Assembly (NCBI GenBank): GCA_022566265.1
Contig: JADFJG010000002.1
Coordinates: forward strand, 9,173 to 73,172
DNA length: 64,000 nt
Source of the DNA: Pseudomonadota bacterium
GTDB taxonomy: Bacteria; Pseudomonadota; Alphaproteobacteria; SMXQ01
Direction: 5' to 3'
Part shown: in pieces, positions 108 to 23,121 of the stretch
Numbering within the stretch: position 1 is the first letter of the stretch
Layout: each line of letters opens with the position of its first letter
Translations under genes and position numbers: made by a program
The notes under the pieces: generated by a model
Seen by the model: the letters and a program-made list of their open reading frames with translations, nothing else
What the model was told of the DNA's origin: nothing
Database searches by the model: none

Positions 108-440
108 TCAGCGGGCCAGCGGGACGGTGGGGGTCTCCGGCTGGGACGGGCCCGGCTCGACCGGCGCCTCCTGGGCCGGGGTCCCCGCCCCGCCTTCATC
201 CAGGATCGACCGGGGCGTGCGTTCGGCGCTGGCGAGTATCGCCAGCAACAGACTCATGCCCACGAACAGCGCCGCGATAACCGCCGTCGCCCGGGTCAGG
301 AAATTGGCCGTACCACGGCTCGTCATCATGCCGCCGCCGCCGCCCATGCCTAGCGCCCCACCCTCGCTACGCTGGAGCAGGACCGTGACCACCAGGGCCA
401 AGGCGAGACAAAGATGGATAACAAGTAGGATCGTCGTCAT
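108..440 (-). CDS. secG: preprotein translocase subunit SecG
   Basis: Translation MTTILLVIHLCLALALVVTVLLQRSEGGALG...GMGGGGGMMTSRGTANFLTRATAVIAALFVGMSLLL matches the SecG pattern: two TM helices plus a Gly-rich loop. Lies immediately downstream of tpiA, as is typical. Start taken at the internal Met, not the ORF-track Met. Confidence 0.8.
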   Translation of the reverse strand: MTTILLVIHLCLALALVVTVLLQRSEGGALGMGGGGGMMTSRGTANFLTRATAVIAALFVGMSLLLAILASAERTPRSILDEGGAGTPAQEAPVEPGPSQPETPTVPLAR

Positions 441-535
441 GACCGATACAACAAAGCGCCACTCACACAAGCGGCCGGGTCCGATGCCGGCCGGAAAATT
501 TCACACGACCTTTTACTCGCTTCCCGGCGAAACCG

Positions 536-3468: not shown

Positions 3469-4977
3469 ATGGACAATTCGCCTGACTTTCGTGACTTTGC
3501 CCGCATTTACCGGGCAAAGCAGGGACAGGTCGTGTGGACCAAGCTGGTTGCCGATCTGGAGACTCCGGTCTCGGCGATGCTCAAGCTGTCCGAGGGGGAG
3601 ACCAACAGCTTCCTGTTCGAATCGGTCGAAGGCGGGAAGGTGCGCGGGCGTTACTCCTTCATGGGGTTCAAGCCCGATCTCATCTGGCGCTGTCACGGCG
3701 ATCGGGCCGAGATCGACCGGGCCGCGCGCACGCACGTGGACGCCTTCGAGCCCTGCTCCGGCGGACCGCTCGACTCCTTGCGCGCGATCATCGCCGAATC
3801 CGGGTTCGAGACGCCACCCGAGTTGCCGCCGATGGCGGCGGGGCTTTTCGGCTATATGGGCTACGACACGGTCCGCCTGATGGAGCGCCTGCCCGACGAC
3901 AACCCGGACGATCTCGGCATTCCCGACGCCATATTCCTGCGCCCGACGATCATCGCCATCTTCGACAACATAGAGGACGCGATCACGCTCATTACCCCGG
4001 TGTGGCCCGCCGACGGTATCGACGCGCGCGCCGCCTATGACGCGGCTTCCGCGCGGCTCGGGGAGGCGCTCGAGGCGCTCGAGGGGCCGCTGCCCTACCG
4101 TCACGAGACCGCCGCCGGCGAGATCGCGGCGCCGGTCATCCAATCGAACACGACGCGCGAGGCCTACCACGCCATGGTCGAGACGGCGAAGGCGTATATC
4201 CACGCCGGCGACATCCTCCAGGTCGTGCCCTCGCAACGCTTTTCCGCGCCTTTCCCCCTGCCGTCCTTCGCGCTGTACCGGTCGCTCAGGCGGCTCAACC
4301 CGTCGCCGTTCCTGTTCCACCTCGATTTCGGCGCCTTCCAGATCGTGGGATCGAGCCCGGAAATCCTGGTCAGGCTGCGCGACGGCGTCGTCACCATCCG
4401 CCCCATCGCCGGGACCCGAAGGCGTGGCGTCGACGCCAAGGAAGACCGCGCGCTGGCCGAGGACCTGCTGTCGGACCCGAAAGAGTTGGCGGAACATCTG
4501 ATGCTGCTCGATCTCGGGCGAAACGACGTCGGCCGGGTGGCAAAAGTCGGCACCGTCAAGGTCACCGAGCGGAACATCATCGAGCATTACTCCCACGTCA
4601 TGCACATCGTCTCCAACGTCGAGGGCGATATCGAGCCCGGCCTGGCGGCGCTCGACGCGCTCATCGCCGGCTTTCCCGCCGGCACCGTCTCCGGGGCGCC
4701 CAAGGTGCGGGCGATGGAGATCATCGACCAGCTCGAATGCTCGCGCCGCGGCATCTATGGCGGCTGCATCGGCTATTTCGCCGTCAACGGCACCATGGAC
4801 ACCTGCATCGCGCTCAGAACGGCGCTGGTCAAGGACGGCACCATGTACGTCCAGGCCGGCGGCGGCATCGTCGCCGATTCCGATCCGGAGGCGGAATACC
4901 AGGAAAGCTGCAACAAGGCCAAGGCGCTGATCCGCGCGGCGGAAGAAGCGGTGAGGTTCGCCGCCGCCAAGGGCTGA
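3469..4977 (+). CDS. trpE: anthranilate synthase component I
   Basis: 502 aa. Chorismate-binding C-terminal motifs are present: IAGTRRRG, SGAPKVRAMEII, GIYGGCIGYF, QAGGGIVADSDPEAEYQE. Confidence 0.95.
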   Translation: MDNSPDFRDFARIYRAKQGQVVWTKLVADLETPVSAMLKLSEGETNSFLFESVEGGKVRGRYSFMGFKPDLIWRCHGDRAEIDRAARTHVDAFEPCSGGPLDSLRAIIAESGFETPPELPPMAAGLFGYMGYDTVRLMERLPDDNPDDLGIPDAIFLRPTIIAIFDNIEDAITLITPVWPADGIDARAAYDAASARLGEALEALEGPLPYRHETAAGEIAAPVIQSNTTREAYHAMVETAKAYIHAGDILQVVPSQRFSAPFPLPSFALYRSLRRLNPSPFLFHLDFGAFQIVGSSPEILVRLRDGVVTIRPIAGTRRRGVDAKEDRALAEDLLSDPKELAEHLMLLDLGRNDVGRVAKVGTVKVTERNIIEHYSHVMHIVSNVEGDIEPGLAALDALIAGFPAGTVSGAPKVRAMEIIDQLECSRRGIYGGCIGYFAVNGTMDTCIALRTALVKDGTMYVQAGGGIVADSDPEAEYQESCNKAKALIRAAEEAVRFAAAKG

Positions 4978-5032
4978 TCGCAATCAATCGCTTGGTCCCC
5001 GCCGCAGCCGGGGTGGAGAACGGCCTAACCGC

Positions 5033-6229
5033 CTACCTTTCGCGCATCGCGATGGCGGAGATCGGCACCAGCACGAAGCCCCGCGCGATCACGTCGGGCA
5101 GCCATTCCTCCAGCACCTCCAGGGTGGCGTCGCGGGGATGGCCGATGGCCACCGCGAAACCGGTATGGGTGGCGATCAGCTCGACCTCCCCCAAGCGCTG
5201 GCGTACGGTCTCGGTCAGGGCCTCGTTGTCGAGGAAGACGTGGCGGCGCGCATTGGGCACGCCGAAACGCCTGGCCATCCTGGTGCCGACGGAGTCCTGC
5301 GTCGTCCGGGAATCGAGGAACATCAACCCCTCGGCGCGGAGCTCGCGCACCACCGTCGTCATGCCCTCGGCGTCGCCGGTGAATTTGCTGCCCATATGGT
5401 TGCTGATGCCGACATAGCCGTCGAAACGGCCGAGCGCCCAGCGCAGCCGGCTAAGAATGTCCTTCGGCTCGAGGTCGCCGATAAGCGCGTTCGGCCCCGG
5501 GTCTTCGTCCACCGATTCGGGCTCCATCGAGACATGCACCAGAAGTTCGTGACCGGCGGCGCGCGCGGCCTCTGTCTGGCGCCTTAGATCCGAGCCGTAA
5601 GGAAGATAGGCAAGCGTCAACGGGCCCGGAAGGGCGATCGCGCGGGCCGACCGGGCGCGGTCCAGTCCCATGTCGTCGATGACCACGGCGATCATCGCCC
5701 TGCCATCCAAGTTGGAGACCTTTACCGCGTTCCGCCGCCAGCGGAGCCGATCGTCCGGGATGGGCGGGAAGGTGGCGCTGGGCAACGCCGCGACCTCTTG
5801 CGGCGCCGGCACGCGCCCGTCCTTATTTTCCGCGGCGCCGGCGGTTCGAACCACGGGCACTTGTTCAGCGGCGGGTTGTCGAGGGACGGAATTTTCAGCA
5901 GTGGCTTGCTCAGGCACGGATTTCTCGCCGACGGATCGACCGCCAAGCTCGCCGACCCGCCGTTTCGGCGGACCGTGCTTGAAGACCACCCGGGGCGGGC
6001 GGAACGGCCGCGCCTTCCTGGGCACAATTTCATCCGCTTGGGAAATCCCCTGCCCATCGGCGCCGGCGATGACCGCTTGGCCCCCTTCCGACGGCCCGAA
6101 CAGGAAGGTCATCCCGACGCCGACGCCGACGCCGACACACAAGGACAGGAAAGCGATCACCAAGGGCAACGAGAGGCCCCGGGACAACCGCTGTTTCATC
6201 CTTTGCAACAGGCCCCAGCCGAGTTTCAC
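5033..6229 (-). CDS. divergent polysaccharide deacetylase family protein (YibQ-like)
   Basis: 398 aa with an N-terminal TM segment and a low-complexity linker. C-terminal region (MIAVVIDDMGLDRA...LAYLPYG...HELLVHVSMEP...GISNHMGS) matches the divergent polysaccharide deacetylase / DUF610 fold. Confidence 0.65.
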   Translation of the reverse strand: MKLGWGLLQRMKQRLSRGLSLPLVIAFLSLCVGVGVGVGMTFLFGPSEGGQAVIAGADGQGISQADEIVPRKARPFRPPRVVFKHGPPKRRVGELGGRSVGEKSVPEQATAENSVPRQPAAEQVPVVRTAGAAENKDGRVPAPQEVAALPSATFPPIPDDRLRWRRNAVKVSNLDGRAMIAVVIDDMGLDRARSARAIALPGPLTLAYLPYGSDLRRQTEAARAAGHELLVHVSMEPESVDEDPGPNALIGDLEPKDILSRLRWALGRFDGYVGISNHMGSKFTGDAEGMTTVVRELRAEGLMFLDSRTTQDSVGTRMARRFGVPNARRHVFLDNEALTETVRQRLGEVELIATHTGFAVAIGHPRDATLEVLEEWLPDVIARGFVLVPISAIAMRER

Positions 6230-6504
6230 TTCACGCCTCCAGGGGAAGAAAGTTCACCGGAGGCGTCCGGCGCCCATATCCCGGCGCCGACACTATACCG
6301 AAACCCGTTGGCGCCGATCCAGCCAAATCCCTTGGCCATGTGCGCTCCGCCACGACAAGAAGCGCGAGAAGAAGCGCGGAGTTGACAATCAGGGGATCGC
6401 CAGCCCCATCCATTGCGCGAGCAGCCGCGCCTGGCTTCGGCGCGTCGGCGGCCAAGGCCACAGTTTTGGCTGGCGCGGGAGAGGTTCCATTTCGACGCGC
6501 CATC

Positions 6505-7167
6505 TCAGAAAAGATTCCAGATCCTTTCCCAGAGGCCTTGTTCCTCGTGTGCGTCGTTCACGAGTGCGTTGACGAAGAGGACGAGGTTCGTCGGATCGAA
6601 CCTCAGACCGTGAAAATTCGCCCGCCAGCGCCCGTCCCGGTCGATCACATGGGTGACGACGCTGTGAACCTGGTAGCCGCCATCCACCTCGGTAAACTTG
6701 TGACCGAACTTCTCCACCAGTTCTCGCGTGGCGGTCAGCCGATCCGGGCCGCTGGTGAGAAACGTCCAGTTTGCCCGATCCAAACCATGTGCCGTGCCAT
6801 AGGCCCGCATGACTTCGGGCGTGTCCCTCCTGGGATCGCTCGTGATCGTCACGAACCGTACCAGATCGCGCATCGGCGTCTGGTTGACCATCTTCTGAAT
6901 CTCGGCGATGCGTTCCGCGTGCAGCGGGCAGACGTCCGGGCAGTTGGTGTAGATGAAGTAAAGGACGACGACCTTGCCTCGAAGGTCCCGCAGCCCGACG
7001 GTTCCGCCGTCGGCGTCCTGGAGCTCGAAGTCCGGCGCTTCCTTGTCGAGAGGCTGGAAGTATTTTTCCTTGTTGTGAAGTTGGTTTTCGAGAGACTTCA
7101 GGGAATGAGCGGACACGGGAGGCGAGGCCGCGGCGACCAGCGCGAGGCCGAGAATAGCGGCGGCCAT
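6505..7167 (-). CDS. SCO1/SenC family copper chaperone (thioredoxin-like)
   Basis: Signal/anchor MAAAILGLALVAAA, then YFIYTNCPDVCPLHAERIAEI (the CxxxCP SCO motif) and a conserved downstream His. Start uncertain; upstream in-frame Mets exist at 7200 and 7224. Confidence 0.8.
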   Translation of the reverse strand: MAAAILGLALVAAASPPVSAHSLKSLENQLHNKEKYFQPLDKEAPDFELQDADGGTVGLRDLRGKVVVLYFIYTNCPDVCPLHAERIAEIQKMVNQTPMRDLVRFVTITSDPRRDTPEVMRAYGTAHGLDRANWTFLTSGPDRLTATRELVEKFGHKFTEVDGGYQVHSVVTHVIDRDGRWRANFHGLRFDPTNLVLFVNALVNDAHEEQGLWERIWNLF

Positions 7168-7217
7168 TTTCGATGTGTTCACCGGGATACCTCGCATAGC
7201 GCCATGGCCGAGCCCCT

Positions 7218-7553
7218 TCAGCATCCCGTCTTAATGAAGGCGCTGATCTCGCCGGGCGCGGAAAAGATGACGAAGCTCCGGTCCCCCCGCATGGCTGCCT
7301 TGATGACGACCGGAGTCCCCGGCGCGGGTCCATCCGGGCTCCCGTCGGTCTTGAAGCGAAGATCGAACTCGCGATAGTCGATGGGAGACCCCGCTTTCGT
7401 GATCACGCGGTACGTGCCCTTGCAATAGGTGATGGCCTCGACCCGCTGATCGGCGGGCGCGTCCGCCAAGTGCAGCTTCTTTCCCTGCTGGTGGGCCAGG
7501 GCCGTTCCCGTCCACAAGCCGCTCGCGACGAGGATGATTGCCATCTTCCTCAT
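7218..7553 (-). CDS. secreted/periplasmic protein of unknown function (copper-cluster member)
   Basis: ORF with a signal peptide (MRKMAIILVASGLWTGTALA) and a C-terminal Cys. No recognisable family. Co-directional, with minimal gaps to the neighbouring copper-cluster genes. Confidence 0.5.
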   Translation of the reverse strand: MRKMAIILVASGLWTGTALAHQQGKKLHLADAPADQRVEAITYCKGTYRVITKAGSPIDYREFDLRFKTDGSPDGPAPGTPVVIKAAMRGDRSFVIFSAPGEISAFIKTGC

Positions 7554-7658
7554 GATGCGGTTCTCCTGCTGTCTCATGTTGCGGTCCTCCTGCTGTCGAA
7601 ATGGTAAAACGACCGGCAACCCGGTTTGTGGAACAGGCCACCAGCCGAAACATGTCCT

Positions 7659-7955
7659 TTACCCCTTGTTCTTCTTCGGCGTCTGGCCGGGTTTCTGGGG
7701 CTTTTCTTGCTGAGGCTGCACCATGGCCTGCATCATCTGGTTGCAGGTCGCCATCATCTGGCTCATCTGCCCCATCATGTTCATCATGCCCATCATGCCG
7801 CCCCGACCCATCTGGCCGCCCTGACCCATCATCCCTCCTTGGCCCATCATCGACCCCGGTGATTTGCTTGTTCCGTCGGCATAGACCGCTGGCGCGGAAA
7901 TGATTCCAGCGATCAAGGCCGCCACGGCCGCCAATGTTTTCAGTTGGATTTTCAT
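7659..7955 (-). CDS. methionine-rich periplasmic (putative Cu(I)-binding) protein
   Basis: Signal peptide MKIQLKTLAAVAALIAGIISAPAVYA, then an extremely Met/Gly/Gln-rich tract (SMMGQGGMMGQGGQMGRGGMMGMMNMMGQMSQMM). This resembles the Met-rich Cu(I)-binding motifs of periplasmic copper-resistance proteins. Start taken at the internal Met. Confidence 0.6.
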   Translation of the reverse strand: MKIQLKTLAAVAALIAGIISAPAVYADGTSKSPGSMMGQGGMMGQGGQMGRGGMMGMMNMMGQMSQMMATCNQMMQAMVQPQQEKPQKPGQTPKKNKG

Positions 7956-8034
7956 GTCGGTTCCTTTTTCCAAAGTTGAGATTGAAGTGACGAAACGGGG
8001 AACGGTCCCCCATCCCATCACGGTTCCCCGTCCT

Positions 8035-8349
8035 TTACGCACCCCCGTCCGAGCCCCTCTTGAAGTCTGACCCCTTTCGGGGGGTCTTGTTGCCGGATGA
8101 GCACGATTCGCCCCCGGCCTTGTTCATGCAGAGCCCCAGGGCGCACATCGCCGCGCAAGGGAGGACGAATAGCAGGATGGGTGCGATACCCACTGCGACT
8201 AGCCAACCCCAGTTCATTGCCATTCCAGCGGCCGCGATGCCGATTGCCAGGACAATCAGACCGCGTCTGCCGCCGATGTGGGGCCAGATTGCGTTCACCA
8301 TGCCCTGGACCGGCGCGACCGAAGTTCCTCTTGAACGTGTCGTGCTCAT
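8035..8349 (-). CDS. small Cys-containing membrane protein (DUF2933-like, metal-resistance associated)
   Basis: 104 aa with one or two TM segments and a CAAMCALGLCM cysteine cluster. A GGGAGAA RBS precedes the first ATG. Such small Cys-rich membrane proteins are commonly found beside CopA/CueR loci. Confidence 0.5.
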   Translation of the reverse strand: MSTTRSRGTSVAPVQGMVNAIWPHIGGRRGLIVLAIGIAAAGMAMNWGWLVAVGIAPILLFVLPCAAMCALGLCMNKAGGESCSSGNKTPRKGSDFKRGSDGGA

Positions 8350-8411
8350 TTGTCGTTCTCCCGCGTTTGATCATTGGTGGACCGAATGAACAACCTACCG
8401 AGAGGTCACAA

Positions 8412-8858
8412 CTAGCTAACCGGTGCCCTGGACTCCACCTCGCCGTTGGCGAGATCGGTGAGTATGGGGCAATCGGGCCGGTCGTCGCCGTGGCAACGCG
8501 CGGTCAGATCGAGCAGCGTTTCACGGATCGAGCGTAACTCGGCGATCTTCAATTCGATGGCGTCGATGTGCCTGAGCGCCAGCGCCTTCACATTGGCGCT
8601 GGCCCGCTCCTGATCGTTCCACAGCGACAACAGACCGCGCACATCGCGGACCGAAAAGCCGAGGCCTCGTGCCCGCTGGATGAAGCGAAGCACGGCGACG
8701 TCGCGCTTGGAATAGGCGCGGTAGCGGTTGGCGGCGCGTACCGGCTCATCGGTCAGGCCGATGCTCTCGTAATAGCGCATGGTCTTGGCGGAAACGCCGG
8801 TCAGCGCCGATGCGGTGCCGATGTTCATGTAAGGACTGAGTCCGAGATCGTCGGGCAT
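8412..8858 (-). CDS. cueR: MerR-family Cu(I)-responsive transcriptional regulator (CueR/HmrR-like)
   Basis: N-terminal HTH (MNIGTASALTGVSAKTMRYYESIGL), a dimerisation helix, and a C-terminal CHGDDRPDCP metal-binding loop typical of CueR. A strong SD (GAAGGAGG) precedes the ATG at 8858. Confidence 0.85.
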   Translation of the reverse strand: MPDDLGLSPYMNIGTASALTGVSAKTMRYYESIGLTDEPVRAANRYRAYSKRDVAVLRFIQRARGLGFSVRDVRGLLSLWNDQERASANVKALALRHIDAIELKIAELRSIRETLLDLTARCHGDDRPDCPILTDLANGEVESRAPVS

Positions 8859-13451: not shown

Positions 13452-14279
13452 ATGGGCGACAAACTTGCCGAAATCTGCGCCGTGAAGCGCGACCATGTGA
13501 AGGCCTGCATGGCGCGCCGACCTCTGCGCGAGGTCATCATCGCGGCGAACGGCGCCGGCCCGCCGAGGGGATTTCACGCCGCCCTTGCCGGCGTCCGGGA
13601 GGCCGGCGGTTACGGTCTGATCGCCGAGATCAAGCGGGCCTCGCCGAGCGCCGGTCTGATCCGCCCCGATTTCGCGCCCGAAGAGCTCGCCGCCGCCTAT
13701 GAGAGAGGCGGCGCGGTATGCCTTTCGGTGCTGACCGACGTTGCCTATTTTCAGGGCAGCGATGACGACCTGGTTAGCGCCCGGGGGGCGTCGGCGCTGC
13801 CGGTATTGCGCAAGGACTTCATGGTCGATCCCTATCAGATCGCCGAGGCCCGCGCCCTTGGCGCCGACTGCGTGCTGCTGATCATGGCGGCGCTCGACGA
13901 CGGGATGGCGCGGGAACTTGAGACGAGCGCGCGATCGTTCGGCATGGACGTCCTGATCGAGGTCCATGACGAGGGCGAGCTTGGCCGCGCGCTGGGGCTG
14001 GGCTCAAAGCTGATCGGCATCAACAACCGCGACCTCAAGACGCTTAAGACCGACCTCGCGACCACCGAGGCGCTGGCCTCGAAGGTGCCCGGAGACCGCC
14101 TCGTGGTCAGCGAAAGCGGCCTCCATGGCGCCGGCGACCTCGCCCGCATGGCCGAGGCCGGCGTCACCTCTTTCCTCATCGGCGAATCGCTGATGCGCCA
14201 GGCCGACGTCGAAGCGGCGACGCGCGCCCTTCTCGCTCCGCCGGCTTTGGCGGCTGGCAGCGGCCGGGCACGGGCCTGA
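13452..14279 (+). CDS. trpC: indole-3-glycerol phosphate synthase
   Basis: 275 aa. Motifs [34 protein letters not shown]. Confidence 0.9.
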
Positions 14280-14292
14280 TCGCGGAAAGAGC

Positions 14293-14769
14293 ATGGCCGA
14301 ACTCACCCATTTCGACGCCAAGGGCAAGAGCCGCATGGTCGACGTTTCCGACAAGGAGGTGAGCCAGCGCGTCGCCGTGGCGGCGGGCTCGGTGGTCATG
14401 GCGCCCGACACCATGAAGCTGATCACCGAAGGCGGCGTCAAGAAGGGCGACGTGCTGTCGGTGGCCCGCCTCGCCGGCATCATGGGCGCCAAGAAGACAC
14501 CCGAGCTTATCCCGCTGTGCCATCCCCTGGCGCTCGATTCGGTCGAGGTGGACCTGGTCTGCGACCCCGAACGAAACGCCATCGACATCACCGCGACCTG
14601 CAAGGTGACGGGACGCACCGGGGTGGAGATGGAAGCCCTGACCGCCGTCGCCGTCGCCGCGCTCACCATCTATGACATGTGCAAGGCCGTCGACCGGGCG
14701 ATGCGGATCACCGATATTCGCCTGATCCACAAGTCCGGCGGCAAGTCCGGCACCTACGACGCCCGATGA
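14293..14769 (+). CDS. moaC: cyclic pyranopterin monophosphate synthase
   Basis: 158 aa. [11 protein letters not shown] and [11 protein letters not shown] motifs are typical of MoaC. Confidence 0.9.
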
Positions 14770-15983
14770 CGATATCCGTAGACCAAGCCCGCGCCCGGAT
14801 TACCGGCGCCTTCAGCCCCCTCGCCGCCGAGCAGGTCGGGATCGAAGGGGCGCTCGGCCGGGTGCTGGCCGAGGACCTGGCGTCGCGCCGCGGCCAGCCC
14901 CCGGTGGCGGTCTCGGCGATGGACGGCTATGCCGTGCGCGCCCGGGACGTGGCGAACGTGCCGGTGACGCTCAAGGTCATCGGCGAGGCGCCGGCGGGGG
15001 CGGAATTCAAGGGAAACATCGGCGCCGGAGAAGCGGTGCGGATCTTCACCGGCGGTCCGGTGCCCGATGGCGCCGATGCCATCGTCATCCAGGAGAACAC
15101 CGACCTCGGCGCCGAAGCGGTGTCGGTGAAGGAAACCGTCGAGGCCGGCGCCTATATCCGCGAAGCCGGGCTCGACTTCAAGGAACACGACGTGCTTCTA
15201 CGCCAAGGCAGGGTGCTGACGGCGCGGGATGTCGGCCTGGCGGCGGCGATGAACCGGCCCTGGCTAAGCGTGCGGCGCAAACCCCGCGTCGCCATCCTGG
15301 CGACCGGGGACGAGGTGGTGATGCCGGGCGAGCCCTTGGGCCCCAACCAGATCGCAAGCTCCAACGCGGTGGCCCTCGCCGCCTTCGTGGCCGCCGACGG
15401 CGGCGTCCCCTTCAACCTCGGCATCGCGCCGGACGACGCCGGCGCCATCGGCGCCATCGCCGAGGGAGCGCGGGGGATGGACCTCCTCATCACCACCGGC
15501 GGCGCTTCGGTCGGCGACCACGACCTGGTCAAGACGGCGCTGGACGACCACGGCTTGGAGCTCGATTTCTGGGGCATCGCCATGAAACCGGGTAAGCCCC
15601 TGATGTTCGGGCGCCTGGGCGCGACGCCGATGCTCGGCCTTCCCGGCAATCCGGTATCCGCCCTGGTCTGCGCCGTCCTGTTCGTGCGCCCGGCGCTGGC
15701 CGTCATGCTCGGCATCGATCGGGCGGAGGAAACGGTGAAGTCGGCGCGCCTCGGCAAGGACGTGGGCAAGAACGGCGCGCGGGAGGAATATATGCGCGCG
15801 ACGCTGACGCAAAACGACGCGGGAGAGCAACTTGTCATTCCCTTCGATGTTCAGGACAGCTCCATGCTGGCGACCCTGGCCGGCGCCGATTGCCTGATAA
15901 AGCGTCCACCCCACGCCCCAGCCGCGAAGGCCGGAGAGCGGGTCGAAATCATCCCCCTCGCCGGCGGCATCGTCGGCATTTAG
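14766..15983 (+). CDS. moeA: molybdopterin molybdotransferase
   Basis: Start at the Met of [12 protein letters not shown], giving an ATGA overlap with the moaC stop. Contains the MoeA PGNPVSA motif and a GGxS region. Confidence 0.85.
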
Positions 15984-16150
15984 CGCACACTCCGGCCACC
16001 TTCATAAAAATTGTGGCCCACATAGTCGTCGAAGGGCGTCGCCTTCAGGGCCGATTGACGACGATTGGCGCGCCGCCCCTTTCGTTTCGGCGGTTTCTCC
16101 CGATTTTTTTTGTGTGATCTTTTGGCCACTTAATCCTTGACGGCGGGTGA

Positions 16151-16190
16151 GAACTAAACTAGAACATGTACAGACGTTTTGGTTTTGTTC
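16151..16190 (+). promoter_or_regulatory. LexA operator(s) upstream of lexA: exact alphaproteobacterial GAAC-N7-GAAC (GTTC-N7-GTTC) box plus a second near-consensus box
   Basis: GAACtaaactaGAAC at 16151-16165 matches the alphaproteobacterial SOS box exactly (read on the opposite strand, GTTC-N7-GTTC). GTTTtggttttGTTC at 16176-16190 is a one-mismatch second box. These lie 35-74 bp upstream of the lexA start. Confidence 0.7.
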
Positions 16191-16224
16191 CATATTTTGT
16201 GTTCCCACGCCGCCGGGGGGCGAT

Positions 16225-16935
16225 ATGCTGACAAAAAAGCAACACGAACTTTTACTCTACGTGAACCAGCATCTGCGCGAGAGCGGCATATCGCCTTCGT
16301 TCGATGAAATGAAGGACGCGCTCGGGCTGAAATCGAAATCGGGCATCCACCGGTTGATCACCGGGCTGGTGGAACGCGGTTTCATCCACCGCCTGCCCCA
16401 CCGGGCCCGCGCGCTCGAGGTGCTGCGCATGCCGGAGGGCACGGCGGTCTCGCCATCGGGCGCTCCCGGCAACGGCTCGGGCTTCGCTCCCAACGTCATC
16501 GAGGGCCGGTTCAAGCCCGAACTGCCTGGAAGCCAGCCGGTGCCGGCCGGCGAGGTGGTGGAGCTGCCGCTTTACGGCCGCATCGCCGCCGGCACGCCGA
16601 TTGAAGCGTTGCGGGACCACACCGAAACCGTGGCGCTGCCGCCGCACATGGTCAGTGGCGGCGAACATTACGCGCTCGAGGTCGAAGGTGATTCGATGAT
16701 CGATGCCGGCATCCTCGACGGCGACATCGCCATCATCCGGCGTTGCGACGTGGCCGAGACCGGCGCCATCGTCGTCGCCCTGATCGATGAGAACGAGGTG
16801 ACGCTGAAGCGGCTGCGCCGAAAGGGCCACTCCATCGCGCTGGAGCCCGCCAACGAGGCCTACGAGACCCGCATCTTCGGCCCCGACAGGGTGCGTCTGC
16901 AAGGCCGCCTCGTCGGCCTCCTGCGCAAGTACTAG
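16225..16935 (+). CDS. lexA: LexA repressor
   Basis: Start at [11 protein letters not shown]-terminal winged-helix domain, and a C-terminal S24 peptidase domain ([13 protein letters not shown]...[18 protein letters not shown]) with a Ser/Lys dyad. Confidence 0.95.
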
Positions 16936-16980
16936 AGCGTACCCCGATTGGCTTGACCCCTCCCGCTCCCCCCGCGGGAC

Positions 16981-19900
16981 GTGTCCCGGTCGGCCGGCAA
17001 CGCCCTGAAAGGCCCCGCCCAGGGGCCTTTCACGCTATGGCCCGCTCAGGGAACAAGATTGGCTCAAAACGAGACACAGCAGATAGAGATATACATCGGA
17101 CAGCAGATCGAGCATGCGTCCGAGCGGGCCGTACTCGACCGGCTTGTCCACCTGCTCAAGCGTGATCAGCGACCGGCCATTATCCTTTCAAATTTCAGTC
17201 TGAAAGCTCGCCAGATCGATTTCGTCGTGGGCTTGGATGACCTGGCTCTGGTCGTCGAAGCAAAGGGTTGCTCTCGGCCTGTGCGCGGTGGGGAGAACGG
17301 CCCTTGGCACGTCGGGTTGGCATCGGGCGACTGGAAAGATTTTCGGAACCCTTACGTTCAGGCCCGCGATGCAGCCCTCGCAGTCAAGGATGCTATGCGC
17401 TCCTTCTTTAATGCCGACGTACAGTACCCTTCGGCAGCACTCATTTTCGTGCCCGAGATCCCGCGCGGCTCTCGGGTTTATGCGGGAGACTTCAAAGTGT
17501 CAGTGACCGGCCTGGACGGTTTGCATGCCGCGCTTCAGACGCGACAAAACGACACCTGGCCGCTCATTCAGTGGAGAGAGTTCGCCCAGCATCTTCGACT
17601 CACGCCCGTTTCCACGGTTGCAACTGCGTGTGACCCCAGCCTGGCTGGGGCTGAGGACCTCCTCAGGCGCTACACGGCAGCATTCGGCCGCACATACACG
17701 TCTGCGGAGCCGTTGATTCCCTTCGTATGCCAATCGGATGGGGAGGCGATTTCGTCCGAGGATGTCGCTCGTCTGGTTTCTGAGCAGCACGCTGACATCC
17801 TGATCCGAGGCCCCTCAGGATGCGGCAAGACACTGTTGGCGGCCCACGCCGGCCTTGAGTTCAACCGGCGTGGTGGAGTAGCCATCACCATTCCTGCCAG
17901 GAATTACACCGGCAGTCTCAAGGCCGTGCTTGATCGCGAAGCCAGTTTGTTGGGTGCCGCATCGGCCGTAAAGCTGTTAAACGCGGCGCGGAGGCGCAAC
18001 CGACCAATCCTTTTTATCCTCGATGGCTATAACGAGTGCGCAGAGTCGGAACAGTCGTCACTCACCCGTGGGCTTGCTGCGCTGGCGCGAAATTATGAAG
18101 GCAGCGTCCTTATCACCTCACAGACGCCGCTGGCACGAAACGACCTACTGGCGCTCCGTGCTGTTGAGGTCTCGTCGACCAGCATGGAAACGAAGATTGC
18201 CATCGCTCTGAACGTCATAGGTGGCGATGCGCTACCAAGGGAAATCAAACCTCTGCTCGATGCAGTCAGCACTGGCCTGGAGGCTAGGCTCGTTGGCGAA
18301 GTGGGTCAGCAGCCTAGCCGCGGGAGCAGCCGGTATGCTTTGTTCGATGCGTTCGCACGGAAACGACTGGGCAACGCGGCCAACGATGGCATTCGCACCC
18401 TTACGGAGGTGGCCGCTTGGCTCTCCGACCGCATCGCATTCAGTCTGTCGATACGCGATCTCGACCGCCTCGCAGACGCTGAGCGTGTGCCACAATCGCT
18501 ACTCAGACTCTTGCAGACATCAGGCTTGCTCGCATTACGTGGAGACCGGGTCAGCTTCGAACATGAAATGTTCTTCAACGCCTTTGCGGCGGAAGCGGTA
18601 GTTCGTCGCACGGCAGGTCAGTCAGAGCCGCTTCTGATTGCACTCACCACCCCACAGCATGCTGCGCGCAAGGACTTTATCATCGGAGCAATCGACGACG
18701 ATCTTCTCCTCGAACAGGTATTGGAGGGAGTGACAGATAGAACGTGCGTCGCTGCGTGCCTCTCTGGAGCATGTGGCCGCCGGGCGCAGGAATGGGCCGA
18801 AGCTCGTTGCCTAAACCTGTTGGAACGACTCCGCGAGGAAGTTCGCAACATTCGATTCCGGATATACGATAAGGGCTGGTGGAACGTCGCCTTTGAGGAA
18901 GATTTCTTGACCACCTGGAGTCTGTGCGATCGAGCATTCCTCGCTGCGTTGCCGCAGTTGATCGCCGAAGGGTGCTATCTCGACGATATCCTTAACATTA
19001 TCGGGATCCTGGACCAACGCATTGCTGAAGAATGGAGCCGGCTACGCCACGAAGCCAGCGAACGCTCCATTGCACTTCGAAGCGGACTTTTTGCAAACAG
19101 CTACGTCTTTCCGTTCAGCGCTACTCCTGGAATTACCCAGATCTGCTCTCACTTGCACGGCCAACTCTTTTGGACCACAAGCGATGCAGTAGCAAGGGTC
19201 ATCGAAAGAAACCTGATGGGAGACGACTTGTCTCCTGGACAGCTCTACCTGATTCTGATGCTGCGTCGTGGCGCCGATATCGCGGCGTCACTCATTACTC
19301 GCGCCCTCAAGACGCGCTGGGCCAGCGCCCCCTACCATCTGCGGCTGGACTTAATAGATGCGGCTGTTGTGTGTCAGCGGGCTAATGAAGCTGATCGAAC
19401 TGCTCTGATCGAGGCAATTGAAGCGCTTCCGCAACCTCAACACCCGTTCATCTCAACTGCAATCGTAGACGCGTTGCGATTCCTGGGGGGCCTCGAAACG
19501 CCCGAACAAGAGCACCAAATTGTCGTTCGCGAAGAAATCAGCCGGTGCCTTACCTGTCCGGATGACGCGGAAACCTGCGCTGCAGCCTACGGCATCTACT
19601 CCGCGCAGTTCGATCATCCCTTTTCGGGCGCTTACTGTGAGGTCGTCCCCAATCTCTCCGATGACGAGCGAAAGCAGCTCTTGATGATGGCGGCGAGAGG
19701 AGCCGATGATTCCACGTTCTTCCTGTCCCCGTTGCTCATCGAACTGGCATCATTTGGAGACCCCAAAGTCGGCGTCATTATCGGCCGCTCGACCGAATTT
19801 CCGCCTACTGACAGCTTCATGCCCCAGGACGCCATCGCCGTCTTCGTCGTCGCCCACGTCTCCCTGGGCCGCCTCGGCTGCCGCCTGCCCGATAGGCAAC

Positions 19901-20388
19901 TCACAACTGACAACCCCTCGGCTGAGGCCTTAGCCGCTTGCGGGGCCATTCTGTATTGGTGCAATCGCGCCGACCTTGACGAGAATACAAAGCGGAACGC
20001 CTGCCATCACCCGCTGAGCATCCTGGCGCGGCATGAGCAGGGCGCCGCGCTCGATGTTATTCGGGATTGCGAGCACGCCCTCGTCGAAGGCCTGAAGCAT
20101 CTTCCAGGAAAAACGCCAGTAGAGCGGTCCATTGTCGGCCGCTTTCCGGCCGAGGTGGTAGAAATCTGCCGCCATGCTCTACTCCGGCCGGCAATCCAGA
20201 TAGGATACTTCCGTCATTTCTCGGATTATGACAGGCACCAGGATCTGGAATTCGCCATCAACGTCCTCGCACACCATGGGAACACCACCCACCTCACGCT
20301 TCTTCGACGTTGCGCTGGCGACCCCGCCCTCGGAATAACTGCGATTGCCGCGGTGAAGGTGGCCGAACAGCGCATGACTACCCCATGA
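16981..20388 (+). CDS. NERD (nuclease-related domain) - NACHT/STAND P-loop NTPase fusion with a long alpha-helical C-terminal region (candidate bacterial NLR-like antiphage protein)
   Basis: N-terminal ~190 aa match the NERD pattern: GxxxE (IGQQIEHASE), QIDFVVG, LVVEAKG, NPYVQ. The central P-loop has Walker A ILIRGPSGCGKTLL, a NACHT-type Walker B ILFILDGYNE (hhhhDGhxE), and a following LITSQ resembling the NACHT TSR motif. The ~700-aa C-terminal region is helical, with no obvious TPR or WD repeats. GC content is clearly below the flanks. The start is non-ATG in this frame: GTG at 16981 or TTG at 17059. Confidence 0.7.
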   Translation: MSRSAGNALKGPAQGPFTLWPAQGTRLAQNETQQIEIYIGQQIEHASERAVLDRLVHLLKRDQRPAIILSNFSLKARQIDFVVGLDDLALVVEAKGCSRPVRGGENGPWHVGLASGDWKDFRNPYVQARDAALAVKDAMRSFFNADVQYPSAALIFVPEIPRGSRVYAGDFKVSVTGLDGLHAALQTRQNDTWPLIQWREFAQHLRLTPVSTVATACDPSLAGAEDLLRRYTAAFGRTYTSAEPLIPFVCQSDGEAISSEDVARLVSEQHADILIRGPSGCGKTLLAAHAGLEFNRRGGVAITIPARNYTGSLKAVLDREASLLGAASAVKLLNAARRRNRPILFILDGYNECAESEQSSLTRGLAALARNYEGSVLITSQTPLARNDLLALRAVEVSSTSMETKIAIALNVIGGDALPREIKPLLDAVSTGLEARLVGEVGQQPSRGSSRYALFDAFARKRLGNAANDGIRTLTEVAAWLSDRIAFSLSIRDLDRLADAERVPQSLLRLLQTSGLLALRGDRVSFEHEMFFNAFAAEAVVRRTAGQSEPLLIALTTPQHAARKDFIIGAIDDDLLLEQVLEGVTDRTCVAACLSGACGRRAQEWAEARCLNLLERLREEVRNIRFRIYDKGWWNVAFEEDFLTTWSLCDRAFLAALPQLIAEGCYLDDILNIIGILDQRIAEEWSRLRHEASERSIALRSGLFANSYVFPFSATPGITQICSHLHGQLFWTTSDAVARVIERNLMGDDLSPGQLYLILMLRRGADIAASLITRALKTRWASAPYHLRLDLIDAAVVCQRANEADRTALIEAIEALPQPQHPFISTAIVDALRFLGGLETPEQEHQIVVREEISRCLTCPDDAETCAAAYGIYSAQFDHPFSGAYCEVVPNLSDDERKQLLMMAARGADDSTFFLSPLLIELASFGDPKVGVIIGRSTEFPPTDSFMPQDAIAVFVVAHVSLGRLGCRLPDRQLTTDNPSAEALAACGAILYWCNRADLDENTKRNACHHPLSILARHEQGAALDVIRDCEHALVEGLKHLPGKTPVERSIVGRFPAEVVEICRHALLRPAIQIGYFRHFSDYDRHQDLEFAINVLAHHGNTTHLTLLRRCAGDPALGITAIAAVKVAEQRMTTP

Positions 20389-20518
20389 TCGATAATGCCA
20401 CCTCGACACGTGTCATCGGCGCGGTGGTCGAGCCGGGAAGCGAGCCGCTCGAGACCTTAGCCCGTCGAATCGGATCGCATTACATACGAGACGGGCTTCA
20501 ATAGGATATCCTGGCGCT

Positions 20519-21163
20519 ATGGAAGAGCCGACCTTTAATGAACTCCTTGAGCGAGACTTTAGTTGGCCGAAGATAGGAAACAAACTGTTCTCACCGGGCC
20601 AACCTGCATACGGAGCGTTTCTGGCCGGCCACGCTGGCGAGCGGCTTCATCATTTGACAGAAGGATACAAGTTGGCTGCCGATCTACTCGTTGAACAGTC
20701 AGAAGCTGAGGTATGGCGAAGGCGGAAATTGGTCTACCCCATCGTTTTTTGCTATCGGCATTTTTTGGAACTTACGTTGAAAGGCATGCTCAAAGAGTAT
20801 GGATCGATGGGCAGCACAACGCCGAAATGGTCCCACCACAGACTTCAAGACCTATGGAGAGATTTTCGGACGCTTCTTACAAGTCTCGACGGAGACCATC
20901 AAGACGAGCAGGGCACGGAGGCAGTTGAGCAATGCATCGCGGAGTTCGCGAAGATCGATCCGTTCTCGGAGACTTTTCGGTATCCGACTCGCCGAAAGGG
21001 ACAGCCTTTTGACGTTCCCTATGAGATGATCGACTTGCTCCAGCTTCGCGACACAATGCAAGCGATAGAAAACTACTTCATGTGCGCCGATAGCATCCTC
21101 GACAGCGACATCGCCATGGCCCCGCTCCGCGCCGGGCTTGTTTTGCGCCCGTCCGACCGCTAG
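20519..21163 (+). CDS. hypothetical protein, co-located with the NERD-NACHT gene in the low-GC islet
   Basis: 214-aa ORF, ATG start 130 bp downstream of the NERD-NACHT stop. GC roughly 50%, against ~67% for the genome. Predicted alpha-helical. No family recognised by eye. Confidence 0.5.
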   Translation: MEEPTFNELLERDFSWPKIGNKLFSPGQPAYGAFLAGHAGERLHHLTEGYKLAADLLVEQSEAEVWRRRKLVYPIVFCYRHFLELTLKGMLKEYGSMGSTTPKWSHHRLQDLWRDFRTLLTSLDGDHQDEQGTEAVEQCIAEFAKIDPFSETFRYPTRRKGQPFDVPYEMIDLLQLRDTMQAIENYFMCADSILDSDIAMAPLRAGLVLRPSDR

Positions 21164-21386
21164 CGCCCGGCGCCCGGTATCTGTAACTCTACGTATAGGA
21201 TCGACCGAATGGCCCGTGGTAGGTCTGGGCGTGGCGCTGACCGGCTTCCGGGAGCCCGTCCTGGGGATGTGTTTCGACGCCTAATCCCCACTGCCCTGGG
21301 CTCCCCTCTCTCCGATCAGCGCCACCCTTCCCTTCCCGACCGGTCCGATCCCCGCTCCGCGCCCGGGTCGATTTCGGTTGAGCGAA

Positions 21387-21890
21387 TCACAAGGGTTCGA
21401 ACTTGTCGCGGTCGATCTTCGCCAGGTTCTGGCCCTCGATTCGGATCAGGCGGGTCTCGCTTTCGCGCATCGGCGAGTGGAGATCGCCTTCGTTGTAGAC
21501 CTTAGCCATTCCGGGCTCGAGGTTGTAGGTGCGCAGCCGTTCGACCTTGCCCGGCTTGTCGCCTTTCGGCGGTTCGACGAGCCGCCAGTCGGTCATTTCG
21601 GTCACGCCCTCCACTTGGCCATAGATCGCCCACGACGGTCCGTGGTCGTGCGGCTGGCTGCTTCTCGGGCCTTTGTAGATATGGGCGACGATGCAAAAGC
21701 CGAGATCGGCGTCTTCATAGAGGATATTGCGCGCCTTATCCGCCTCCGGCCCGAGATGGGCGGCGACGAAGGCGTCGTCGCCGAGCGCGCGTTCCAGCAA
21801 CCCGCGCACCTTTTCGCGGCCCGGAGGCCCGGGAAATTCCGTCAACGCGTTTCGGCAATCGGCGGCGAATTCATCAAGCGTATAGGCCAT
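21387..21890 (-). CDS. cupin-domain protein (cysteine dioxygenase type-I-like)
   Basis: Start at MAYTLDEF. The cupin His cluster (CIVAHIYKGPRSSQPHDHGPSWAIYGQVEG) resembles the thiol-dioxygenase / CDO family. Confidence 0.5.
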   Translation of the reverse strand: MAYTLDEFAADCRNALTEFPGPPGREKVRGLLERALGDDAFVAAHLGPEADKARNILYEDADLGFCIVAHIYKGPRSSQPHDHGPSWAIYGQVEGVTEMTDWRLVEPPKGDKPGKVERLRTYNLEPGMAKVYNEGDLHSPMRESETRLIRIEGQNLAKIDRDKFEPL

Positions 21891-21977
21891 TCCATCCCTC
21901 CCCGGTGATTTTCCTGGATCGCTACGCCCAGCATATACCACCCATTACCCGCCATACAGGCTCCACCGGCGCCAAAC

Positions 21978-22781: not shown

Positions 22782-23121
22782 GGGCGCGCGCCCCGGCTTC
22801 TCCTGGCGGTCGTCTTCATGGCTTGGGGAACTTAAGCGGTCGCCGCCCCCAAGGCACCAAGATTCTGGTCGGCCCAGGGCGCGCCCGGCGATAACCGGCG
22901 CCGGCGCCGATGGGGAACCTGCCCGTCAGTAGTAGTGCCCGTCAGTAGTAGTGAATGACGTGGCGGCTGCGTGACAGGATGTAGGAGTTGCCGTAGCGGT
23001 CGAAACACAGGGTCCCGCCGATCTTGGCCCGGCGGCCGAAGCGGTCAAAGCCGTACTTGATCACCGCCCTACAGCCGGCCGAATACCGGCTGCGGCCGTA
23101 ATTGTGGCCGCCGTAGTGACG

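Follow-up and report, generated by a model that had tools for sequence, protein, structure and literature searches.

A NERD-STAND gene in a low-GC cassette downstream of lexA encodes a probable NLR-like antiviral protein of the bNACHT30 family

The DNA analysed here, referred to throughout as the window, is a stretch of 64,000 nucleotides from the Pseudomonadota bacterium assembly GCA_022566265.1 (Alphaproteobacteria, SMXQ01; contig JADFJG010000002.1, positions 9,173 to 73,172 of the forward strand). Directly downstream of lexA, the window carries a gene on the + strand (17059..20388; 1109 aa plus stop) whose product joins an N-terminal NERD nuclease domain to a STAND NTPase and a large helical C-terminal region. 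We consider it likely, with a probability of about 0.72, that this is a single-chain antiviral STAND protein of the Avs/bNACHT type, similar in organization to NOD-like receptors (NLRs) and belonging to the bNACHT30/'nSTAND4' family. This reading draws on the three-part architecture of the protein, the conservation of its catalytic and NTPase motifs, the exchange of effector domains among its homologues, the association of the family with defence systems and mobile elements, and its homology to bNACHT30. A first-pass annotation, made from the sequence alone, had proposed the same Avs/bNACHT-like architecture, which was borne out by Pfam, by a full-length structural model and by Avs4 as the best structural match; all the motifs it quoted (IGQQIE, RQIDFVVG, LVVEAKG, RNPYVQ, GPSGCGKT, ILFILDGYNEC and LITSQ) are present in the translation.

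The open reading frame (ORF) described in that annotation, 1135 codons counted from a GTG at 16981 and ending at 20388 (+), is indeed uninterrupted, but its start was probably placed too far upstream. Translation from GTG 16981 would add 26 codons (78 nt) that traverse a perfect 11-bp hairpin located 3' of the lexA stop (16935). An identical protein of 1109 aa is held at NCBI as MCH8095564.1 ('MAG: NERD domain-containing protein [Proteobacteria bacterium]'; MAG, metagenome-assembled genome), annotated from TTG 17059, and the N-termini of family members align from residues 1–8 of this 1109-aa form. Given the hairpin, the NCBI annotation and the homologous N-termini, translation most likely begins at TTG 17059. 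Residue numbers throughout refer to the 1109-aa form.

The N-terminal domain was assigned to NERD both by the first-pass annotation and by Pfam, where PF08378 scored 34.1–34.2 bits against a gathering cut-off of 22.1. Its core, of the PD-(D/E)xK, restriction-endonuclease-like type, covers residues 19–113 (17113..17397, +), and in the AlphaFold2 model the nuclease core extends over residues 9–131 in the order alpha-beta-beta-beta-alpha-beta (helices 20–35 and 98–117; strands 40–48, 51–59, 62–70 and 125–131). The alignment places the catalytic tetrad at E22 (17122-17124), D54 (17218-17220), E67 (17257-17259) and K69 (17263-17265), and these residues are kept in 50/55, 57/57, 55/55 and 52/55 aligned sequences, respectively. 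Their spacing (32, 13 and 2 residues) is that of E535/D567/E580/K582 in the NERD protein ZwsA. The catalytic set is thus intact and nuclease activity is predicted. Among 45 family members scanned, PF08378 matched 38, which are all those that carry neither TIR nor DUF4062 in its place.

The central part of the protein shows the hallmarks of the STAND superfamily. Its nucleotide-binding domain (NBD; residues 241–375, 17779..18183, +), delimited from motifs, Pfam and Foldseek, contains Walker A GPSGCGKT (residues 251–258, 17809-17832), Walker B PILFILDGYNEC (residues 316–327, 18004-18039), which includes ILFILD, and TSQ at the sensor-1 position (residues 353–355). Across 60 sequences, G251, G254, C255, G256 and K257 as well as the run D322-G323-Y324-N325-E326-C327 are invariant, and GPSGCGKT and ILFILD are likewise invariant as motifs. 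In the model, the NBD leads into a helical domain plus a winged-helix domain (WHD), together residues 376–520 (18184..18618, +), with helices at 425–457, 465–487 and 503–517 and strands at 462–464 and 491–500. The family alignment has invariant WHD columns at F500, H502, E503, F509 and E512, the first three forming an F-x-H-E motif (18556-18567, +). From the pattern of this motif, we take H502 to correspond to the nucleotide-sensing WHD histidine of NLRs (H443 of NLRC4).

Within STAND, the first-pass annotation had placed the NTPase near NACHT rather than among generic AAA+ proteins, and this held in part. The best NTPase models for the window protein are NACHT and NPHP3_N, both on residues 247–362; NACHT (PF05729) reached 24.2 bits, below its cut-off of 26.7, and NPHP3_N 21.3 bits. 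Relatives were matched by NACHT in 28 of 45 cases (E<=1e-3, best 1.5e-8) and by NPHP3_N in 26 of 45. NACHT proteins reportedly carry a Walker B of the form hhhhD[GAS]hDE and a TSR at sensor-1. The Walker B of the window protein reads DGYNE, in which G323 and E326 match that signature and the first acidic position is taken by the invariant N325, while TSQ stands at the TSR position and a near-invariant R360 follows five residues further on. In Foldseek, STAND folds outranked AAA+ proteins of the Cdc6/ORC type.

This structural comparison used a full-length AlphaFold2 model, for which an alignment of 60 family sequences served as input and whose overall confidence was high (predicted local distance difference test score, pLDDT, 88.8; predicted template modelling score, pTM, 0.74). 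The model arranges the chain as nuclease core, short helical linker, P-loop NBD, helical domain plus WHD, and an all-helical C-terminus. Searched against the PDB with Foldseek, its best match was Avs4 bound to a phage portal protein (8dgf, E=2e-8), followed by NLRC4, NLRP9, NOD2 and NLRP3; Cdc6/ORC-type AAA+ structures came only after these. At the sequence level, single-sequence and profile searches of the PDB returned only P-loop matches and a marginal alignment to the NACHT domain of NLRC4.

The putative sensor comprises residues 521–1109 (18619..20385, +; about 590 aa) and folds in the model into an irregular HEAT/ARM-like alpha-solenoid of approximately 33 helices. Pfam detected no TPR or WD repeat family in it, in agreement with the first-pass description of a helical region with no obvious repeats of these kinds. 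Many residues of the sensor are invariant, including C567, H853, H933 and W967. The structure search returned no specific match for the sensor among PDB structures, those of Avs sensors included. We also noted seven invariant or near-invariant cysteines and histidines scattered over the sensor (C567, C572, H853, H933, C961, C982 and C1004; 18757-20070), which might form a metal site.

Homologues of the window protein form a large family. A word-indexed search retrieved 387 of them, and the best 120 are mostly of about 1100 aa with 44–74% identity over the full length. An exhaustive search with the sensor alone recovered 640 clusters (clustering at 50% identity), 473 of them with E<=1e-10, in which the sensor nearly always occupies positions ~510–1100 of proteins of ~1100 aa. 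The distribution is patchy across more than 10 phyla and includes Alpha-, Beta- and Gammaproteobacteria, Spirochaetia, Latescibacterota, Obscuribacterales, Verrucomicrobia, Chlamydiae, Bacteroidota, Actinomycetota, Acidobacteria and Planctomycetes. Homologues are present in nine plasmid records, where RefSeq names all of them 'NERD domain-containing protein', and none was found in phage records.

Not all family members carry a NERD domain. In three homologues (P0029, P0037 and P0040) a TIR domain takes its place; compared with the window protein, their NTPase is 70–72% and their sensor 63–67% identical, so that these TIR proteins are nearer to the window protein in both modules than most NERD-bearing members are. 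Four others (P0055, P0104, P0106 and P0111) have DUF4062 instead, at 60–63% identity in the NTPase and 53–59% in the sensor. The N-termini of the TIR and DUF4062 members share only ~20% identity with that of the window protein and are non-homologous to it. NERD, TIR and DUF4062 are therefore exchanged on a constant NTPase and a constant solenoid sensor of 590 aa, which is the three-part organization of STAND immune proteins. A constant switch and sensor with a swappable effector has been described for bNACHT immune proteins by Kibby et al., and such an arrangement is a signature of both Avs and bNACHT proteins.

The genomic neighbourhoods of the homologues also point to immunity. We grouped the genes surrounding the family gene at 52 genome loci into clusters and used hidden Markov models (HMMs) to identify the recurrent ones. 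Hachiman (HamA and HamB) occurred within 5 kb at 12/52 loci, its nearest gene lying 32–3280 nt from the family gene, and Gabija (GajA/GajB) within 5 kb at 7/52. Mobile-element genes within 10 kb comprised a tyrosine integrase (8/52 loci), an rve transposase (5/52) and a TrwC relaxase (5/52). According to Lee et al. 2026, the chance of a random gene lying within 5 kb of a defence system is 0.0153. Against this null, the presence of Hachiman or Gabija at 19/52 loci has P=1.5e-21, and 14/47 after collapsing lineages has P=8e-15; since only these two systems were counted, the rate is a lower bound. The defence-island enrichment that the first-pass annotation had anticipated was thus recovered. In the same paper, a STAND clade counts as defence-associated when a listed effector occurs in at least 50% of members and/or defence genes lie within 5 kb at P<=1e-4; the family described here has NERD in 38/45 members, TIR in 3 more, and the 19/52 context, and would be classed as defence-associated on either count.

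Hachiman or Gabija operons stand directly beside NERD-STAND genes, in either orientation, at several of these loci (L016, 13543-17827; L023, 5755-9931; L017, 6338-9929; L030, L040 and others). The pairing recurs across unrelated lineages (Mesorhizobium, Obscuribacterales, Ohtaekwangia and Actinomycetota), and suggests that NERD-STAND genes and Hachiman or Gabija travel jointly as composite islands. Three metagenomic loci add a reverse transcriptase (RT) protein, an AAA_21 and Schlafen pair, Eco57I, PIN and HicB, together with an MZB helicase, MobC, RadC and transposases. In a complete metagenomic chromosome (L001), genes for a 1253-aa RT-domain protein and for an AAA_21 ATPase with a Schlafen/AlbA_2-HATPase pair (4698-8459 and 13840-17792) flank the NERD-STAND gene and are probably further defence systems.

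The closest link to previously studied proteins is bNACHT30 of Klebsiella pneumoniae 4300STDY6470402 (SSJ43639.1; Kibby et al. 2022 preprint, Tables S1 and S2), the one protein of Table S2 with the motifs of the family. Table S1 of that preprint labels it 'nSTAND4 145..453', clade 2, and not NACHT. BLASTP aligned 401 aa of it with the window protein at 35% identity (E=1e-63), colinearly from residue 77 of the latter onwards, so that the homology spans the C-terminal half of NERD, the linker and the NTPase and places both proteins in one family; GPSGCGK, DGYNEC, TSQ and SGLEAxLIG are shared. The cloned bNACHT30 (1657 nt, for a protein of 468 aa) differs in being a fragment that lacks the ~600-aa sensor, whereas the window protein is full length. 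The DNA 5' of its annotated methionine encodes a NERD core (RQVDVVV...LVIEAKG) in the same frame. Because this frame is open from base 1 of the clone, the construct probably lacks its own start as well.

The novelty suggested in the first-pass annotation, both for the protein and for NERD as an uncommon partner of STAND NTPases, is overstated. Lee et al. 2026 surveyed 589 STAND clades, 198 of them defence-associated, and 684 sensor clusters, cloned 30 clusters, and listed pfam08378 NERD among the effector domains. Two family members are among the 656 seeds of that study: WP_049339737.1 (Pseudomonadaceae) and WP_169546673.1 (K. pneumoniae), which are found in its Supplementary Table 1 and both have GPSGCGK and DGYNEC. 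bNACHT20, with the same nSTAND4 label, showed antiphage activity in the same work. Neither the accession of the window protein nor those of its NCBI relatives occur within the supplementary tables that were searched, and a full-text literature search for 'bNACHT30' or 'nSTAND4' returned no papers. The window protein is therefore a new full-length member of an already catalogued STAND family, and the combination of NERD with STAND is already in the literature.

Several better-characterized proteins share the logic of this architecture. Avs3, Avs4 and Avs7 (PDB 8dgc and 8dgf; Gao et al. 2022, Lee et al. 2026) likewise combine an N-terminal PD-(D/E)xK nuclease, a STAND NTPase and a large helical sensor, and in these proteins target binding leads to ATP-dependent tetramerization and assembly of the nuclease. 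They differ in their effector, which is of the Cap4 or Mrr type and not NERD, in their sensors, and in showing no detectable sequence similarity to the window protein beyond the P-loop. bNACHT25 has an Mrr-like effector of the restriction-endonuclease superfamily, an NLR-like NTPase and a sensor. Its WHD histidine (equivalent to NLRC4 H443) controls activation and was used by Kibby et al. to hyperactivate it, and the window family has the invariant F-x-H-E at residues 500–503. However, bNACHT25 belongs to another nuclease family and another NTPase clade and senses via DnaJ, and our analysis establishes no homology between the two. Animal NACHT NLRs (NLRC4, NLRP3, NLRP9 and NOD2) resemble the window protein in the NBD-HD1-WHD structure (Foldseek E=1e-7 to 1e-5) and in the three-part logic, and the NLRC4 NACHT domain aligned to residues 240–357 in a profile search; in contrast to the window protein, they have a leucine-rich-repeat sensor rather than a HEAT-like solenoid and CARD/PYD adaptors rather than an enzyme, and sequence similarity is marginal.

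By analogy with Avs3, Avs4, Avs7 and bNACHT25, we infer a trigger, an oligomerization step, a nuclease substrate and a protective phenotype for the window protein. In uninfected cells, it would be a closed, ADP-bound monomer. The solenoid sensor (residues 521–1109) would bind a conserved phage component, or a host component altered by the phage, and binding would relieve autoinhibition by opening the NBD-HD-WHD module (K257, D322 and H502). ATP would then replace ADP and the protein would oligomerize, which would juxtapose the NERD domains (E22, D54, E67 and K69) and thereby form a working nuclease; nucleic acid would be degraded and the infection aborted. Membership in the restriction-endonuclease superfamily and the example of Avs proteins make DNA the likelier substrate, while RNA is a live alternative because the NERD domain of ZwsA acts as an RNase.

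Several observations weigh against an antiviral role. We found no phage-defence phenotype for a full-length family member in the literature, and the sole tested relative, bNACHT30, has an empty 'Phage Defense' cell in the preprint of Kibby et al.; as that construct is a 468-aa fragment lacking the sensor, however, the blank is uninformative about the full-length family. The sensor has no specific structural relative that would hint at its trigger. PADLOC 2.0 and NCBIfam hold no specific model for the protein and gave no AVAST or bNACHT match: in PADLOC-DB v2 the hits were weak and partial (PDC-M16A on the NERD part, 18.9 bits; mad8, 19.6 bits), and PHROGs returned no specific family for this large protein. 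Membership in NACHT in the strict sense is unproven owing to DGYNE in place of DGhDE and TSQ in place of TSR. Finally, HMM and tRNA scans of the window revealed no neighbouring recognized defence gene, integrase or tRNA.

The setting of the gene supports horizontal acquisition, as the first-pass annotation had proposed. GC content falls to 0.52–0.62 over ~17000–21500, compared with 0.67–0.70 on both flanks. The drop directly after lexA is thus as that annotation described it, although the low-GC stretch of about 4.3 kb contains two genes and not one: the NERD-STAND gene and orf214 (20519..21163, +; 214 aa), the latter with the lowest GC in the region. The flanking genes in the window are trpC, moeA and lexA upstream, and a TauE exporter and a LysR regulator downstream. 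No homologues of lexA, moeA or TauE were found in 55 related loci; placement behind lexA is therefore peculiar to this genome, which is what a mobile cassette would show. Together with the low GC and the mobile-element neighbours of homologues, this supports the view of the NERD-STAND gene and orf214 as a horizontally acquired cassette.

For the second gene, orf214, Pfam, PADLOC, PHROGs and the PDB profile search gave no match. Its 87 homologues, of ~200 aa each, share the strongly conserved motifs YPIVFCYRHFLELTLK and AEFAKIDPFSETFRYP. A possible HEPN assignment was discarded, as it came from a single match (E=0.027) in 1 of 12 homologues and does not constitute evidence. In the two closest genome relatives, Parvibaculum sedimenti (L004; orf214 identity 78%) and a Rhodovibrionaceae MAG (L005; orf214 identity 64%), orf214 lies 15–24 nt 3' of the STAND gene, so that both are inherited together in the closest subclade, and the pair adjoins an IrrE/M78 protein and a large serine recombinase, or AbiEi and an HTH_17 protein. 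Within orf214, a 25-nt segment at 21093..21117 (+; repeat D1) is identical at 24/25 positions to lexA coding sequence at 16709-16733, with a local alignment score of 45 compared with 21.6 +/- 2.6 for shuffled sequences (maximum 30). The alignment of orf214 diverges from about residue 195, and its last ~20 codons differ from all homologues outside this lineage. Because the segment coincides with the point at which orf214 ceases to resemble its homologues, it probably marks the recombination junction at the right-hand end of the cassette, and it may be a short-homology recombination scar.

Four other explanations were weighed. One is that the NERD-STAND protein acts only as half of an obligate two-gene system, with orf214 as co-sensor, regulator, immunity factor or second effector. 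The two genes are both low in GC, orf214 follows directly 3' on the same strand here as it does in the two close relatives, and several metagenomic homologues of orf214 come from contigs equal in length to those carrying close NERD-STAND homologues (P0155/P0030, P0156/P0026, P0158/P0038 and P0162/P0025). Nevertheless, orf214 is missing within 10 kb in 49/52 loci and adjacent in only two, while the third (L028) has just a weak match, encoded on the opposite strand at a distance of 4.3 kb; in the window itself a gap of 130 nt separates the two genes. Moreover, three loci (L056, L058 and L059) have orf214 homologues with no STAND gene, beside an MmeI-type restriction-modification system and an integrase, a RES toxin, or a PIN-TPR-GreABC protein and a resolvase. 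We therefore treat orf214 as a co-travelling part of the acquired cassette rather than as an obligate partner, and regard dependence on it as rather improbable. Slightly better placed, but still unlikely in our judgement, is that the NERD effector is an RNA endonuclease acting on phage or host RNA and not a DNase. The precedent is ZwsA (Zowangsin) of Pseudomonas aeruginosa, whose NERD domain is an active endonuclease that cleaves RNA-phage genomes in vitro, loses defence when the tetrad is mutated, and has the same E/D/E/K spacing as the window protein; some bNACHT proteins are also known from the literature to protect against RNA phages. ZwsA, however, is a constitutive, stand-alone RNase with VHS, DUF647 and S4 domains and no STAND NTPase, and its RNA-binding S4 domain is absent from the window protein. 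NERD itself lies in the restriction-endonuclease superfamily and is read as an endoDNase by the Aravind group, and DNA is the target of the PD-(D/E)xK effectors characterized so far, those of Avs3, Avs7 and bNACHT25.

A non-immune function, as a signalling or regulatory switch or as an SOS-linked DNA-repair factor, appears very improbable. It would fit a gene lying 124 nt 3' of lexA on the same strand, where read-through is conceivable because the intervening hairpin has no U-tract; it would also fit the defence and non-defence clades being interspersed in the STAND tree (Lee et al. 2026) and the lack of a defence phenotype on record. Yet the linkage to lexA is unique to this genome, no SOS box lies between lexA and the NERD-STAND gene (the sole nearby box is that of lexA itself), the protein has no DNA-binding output domain, and the exchange of NERD for TIR or DUF4062 and the Hachiman, Gabija and mobile-element neighbourhoods point to immunity. 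We give equally little credence to an inactive remnant of an acquired gene. The right end of the cassette does look rearranged, the tail of orf214 being replaced at the 25-nt lexA-like segment, and no mobility genes are left nearby. Decay is at odds with the intact frame of 1109 codons, the retention of all checked invariant residues (Walker A, Walker B, the NERD tetrad and the WHD histidine), an identical 1135-codon ORF in a second assembly (P0121) and a 95%-identical orf214 in another.

An antiviral STAND protein of the Avs/bNACHT type thus remains our preferred reading. More tentatively, and well short of even odds, the family could be a distinct antiviral STAND family outside the characterized Avs1–24 and bNACHT proteins, with a highly conserved HEAT/ARM-like sensor for a class of trigger assigned to no Avs so far, a NERD domain that may cleave RNA, and assistance from orf214 in one subclade. 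Bacterial immunity relies on NLR-like STAND proteins as its main pattern-recognition receptors, each studied family sensing a different conserved phage protein, and this large family (~640 clusters, more than 10 phyla, effector swapping) has so far been tested only as a fragment. A full-length member with intact motifs offers a clean construct for a trigger search and for the question of DNA or RNA as NERD substrate; the outcome would extend the existing framework rather than open a new one.

Some further features of the locus deserve mention. The host gene on the left flank, lexA (16147..16935, +), was identified from the Pfam domains LexA_DNA_bind and Peptidase_S24. A pattern match found GTTC-N7-GTTC (GTTCTAGTTTAGTTC, - strand) at 16151-16165, at the 5' end of the lexA ORF, a direct repeat that we take to be of the alphaproteobacterial SOS-box type; it suggests a host from the Alphaproteobacteria and, by its position, that the real start of lexA lies downstream of the listed GTG 16147. 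The hairpin between lexA and the NERD-STAND start (approximately 17006-17032, +; inverted repeat I5 of the scan, also seen in the RNA fold of 16936-17062) is probably the lexA terminator even though no U-tract follows it, and it is missing from the terminator scan output because there is no T run. The scans found no sigma-70-like promoter, terminator-like sites at a frequency not above chance, and no convincing direct repeats flanking the cassette; the single repeat to stand out was the 25-nt lexA-like segment. At the right border of the low-GC zone lies an ORF of 184 aa (21387-21941, - strand) with no Pfam or PHROG match. Further downstream, the intergenic DNA that precedes the TauE gene contains the 16-mer TGCCCGTCAGTAGTAG as two copies in perfect tandem (22920-22951).

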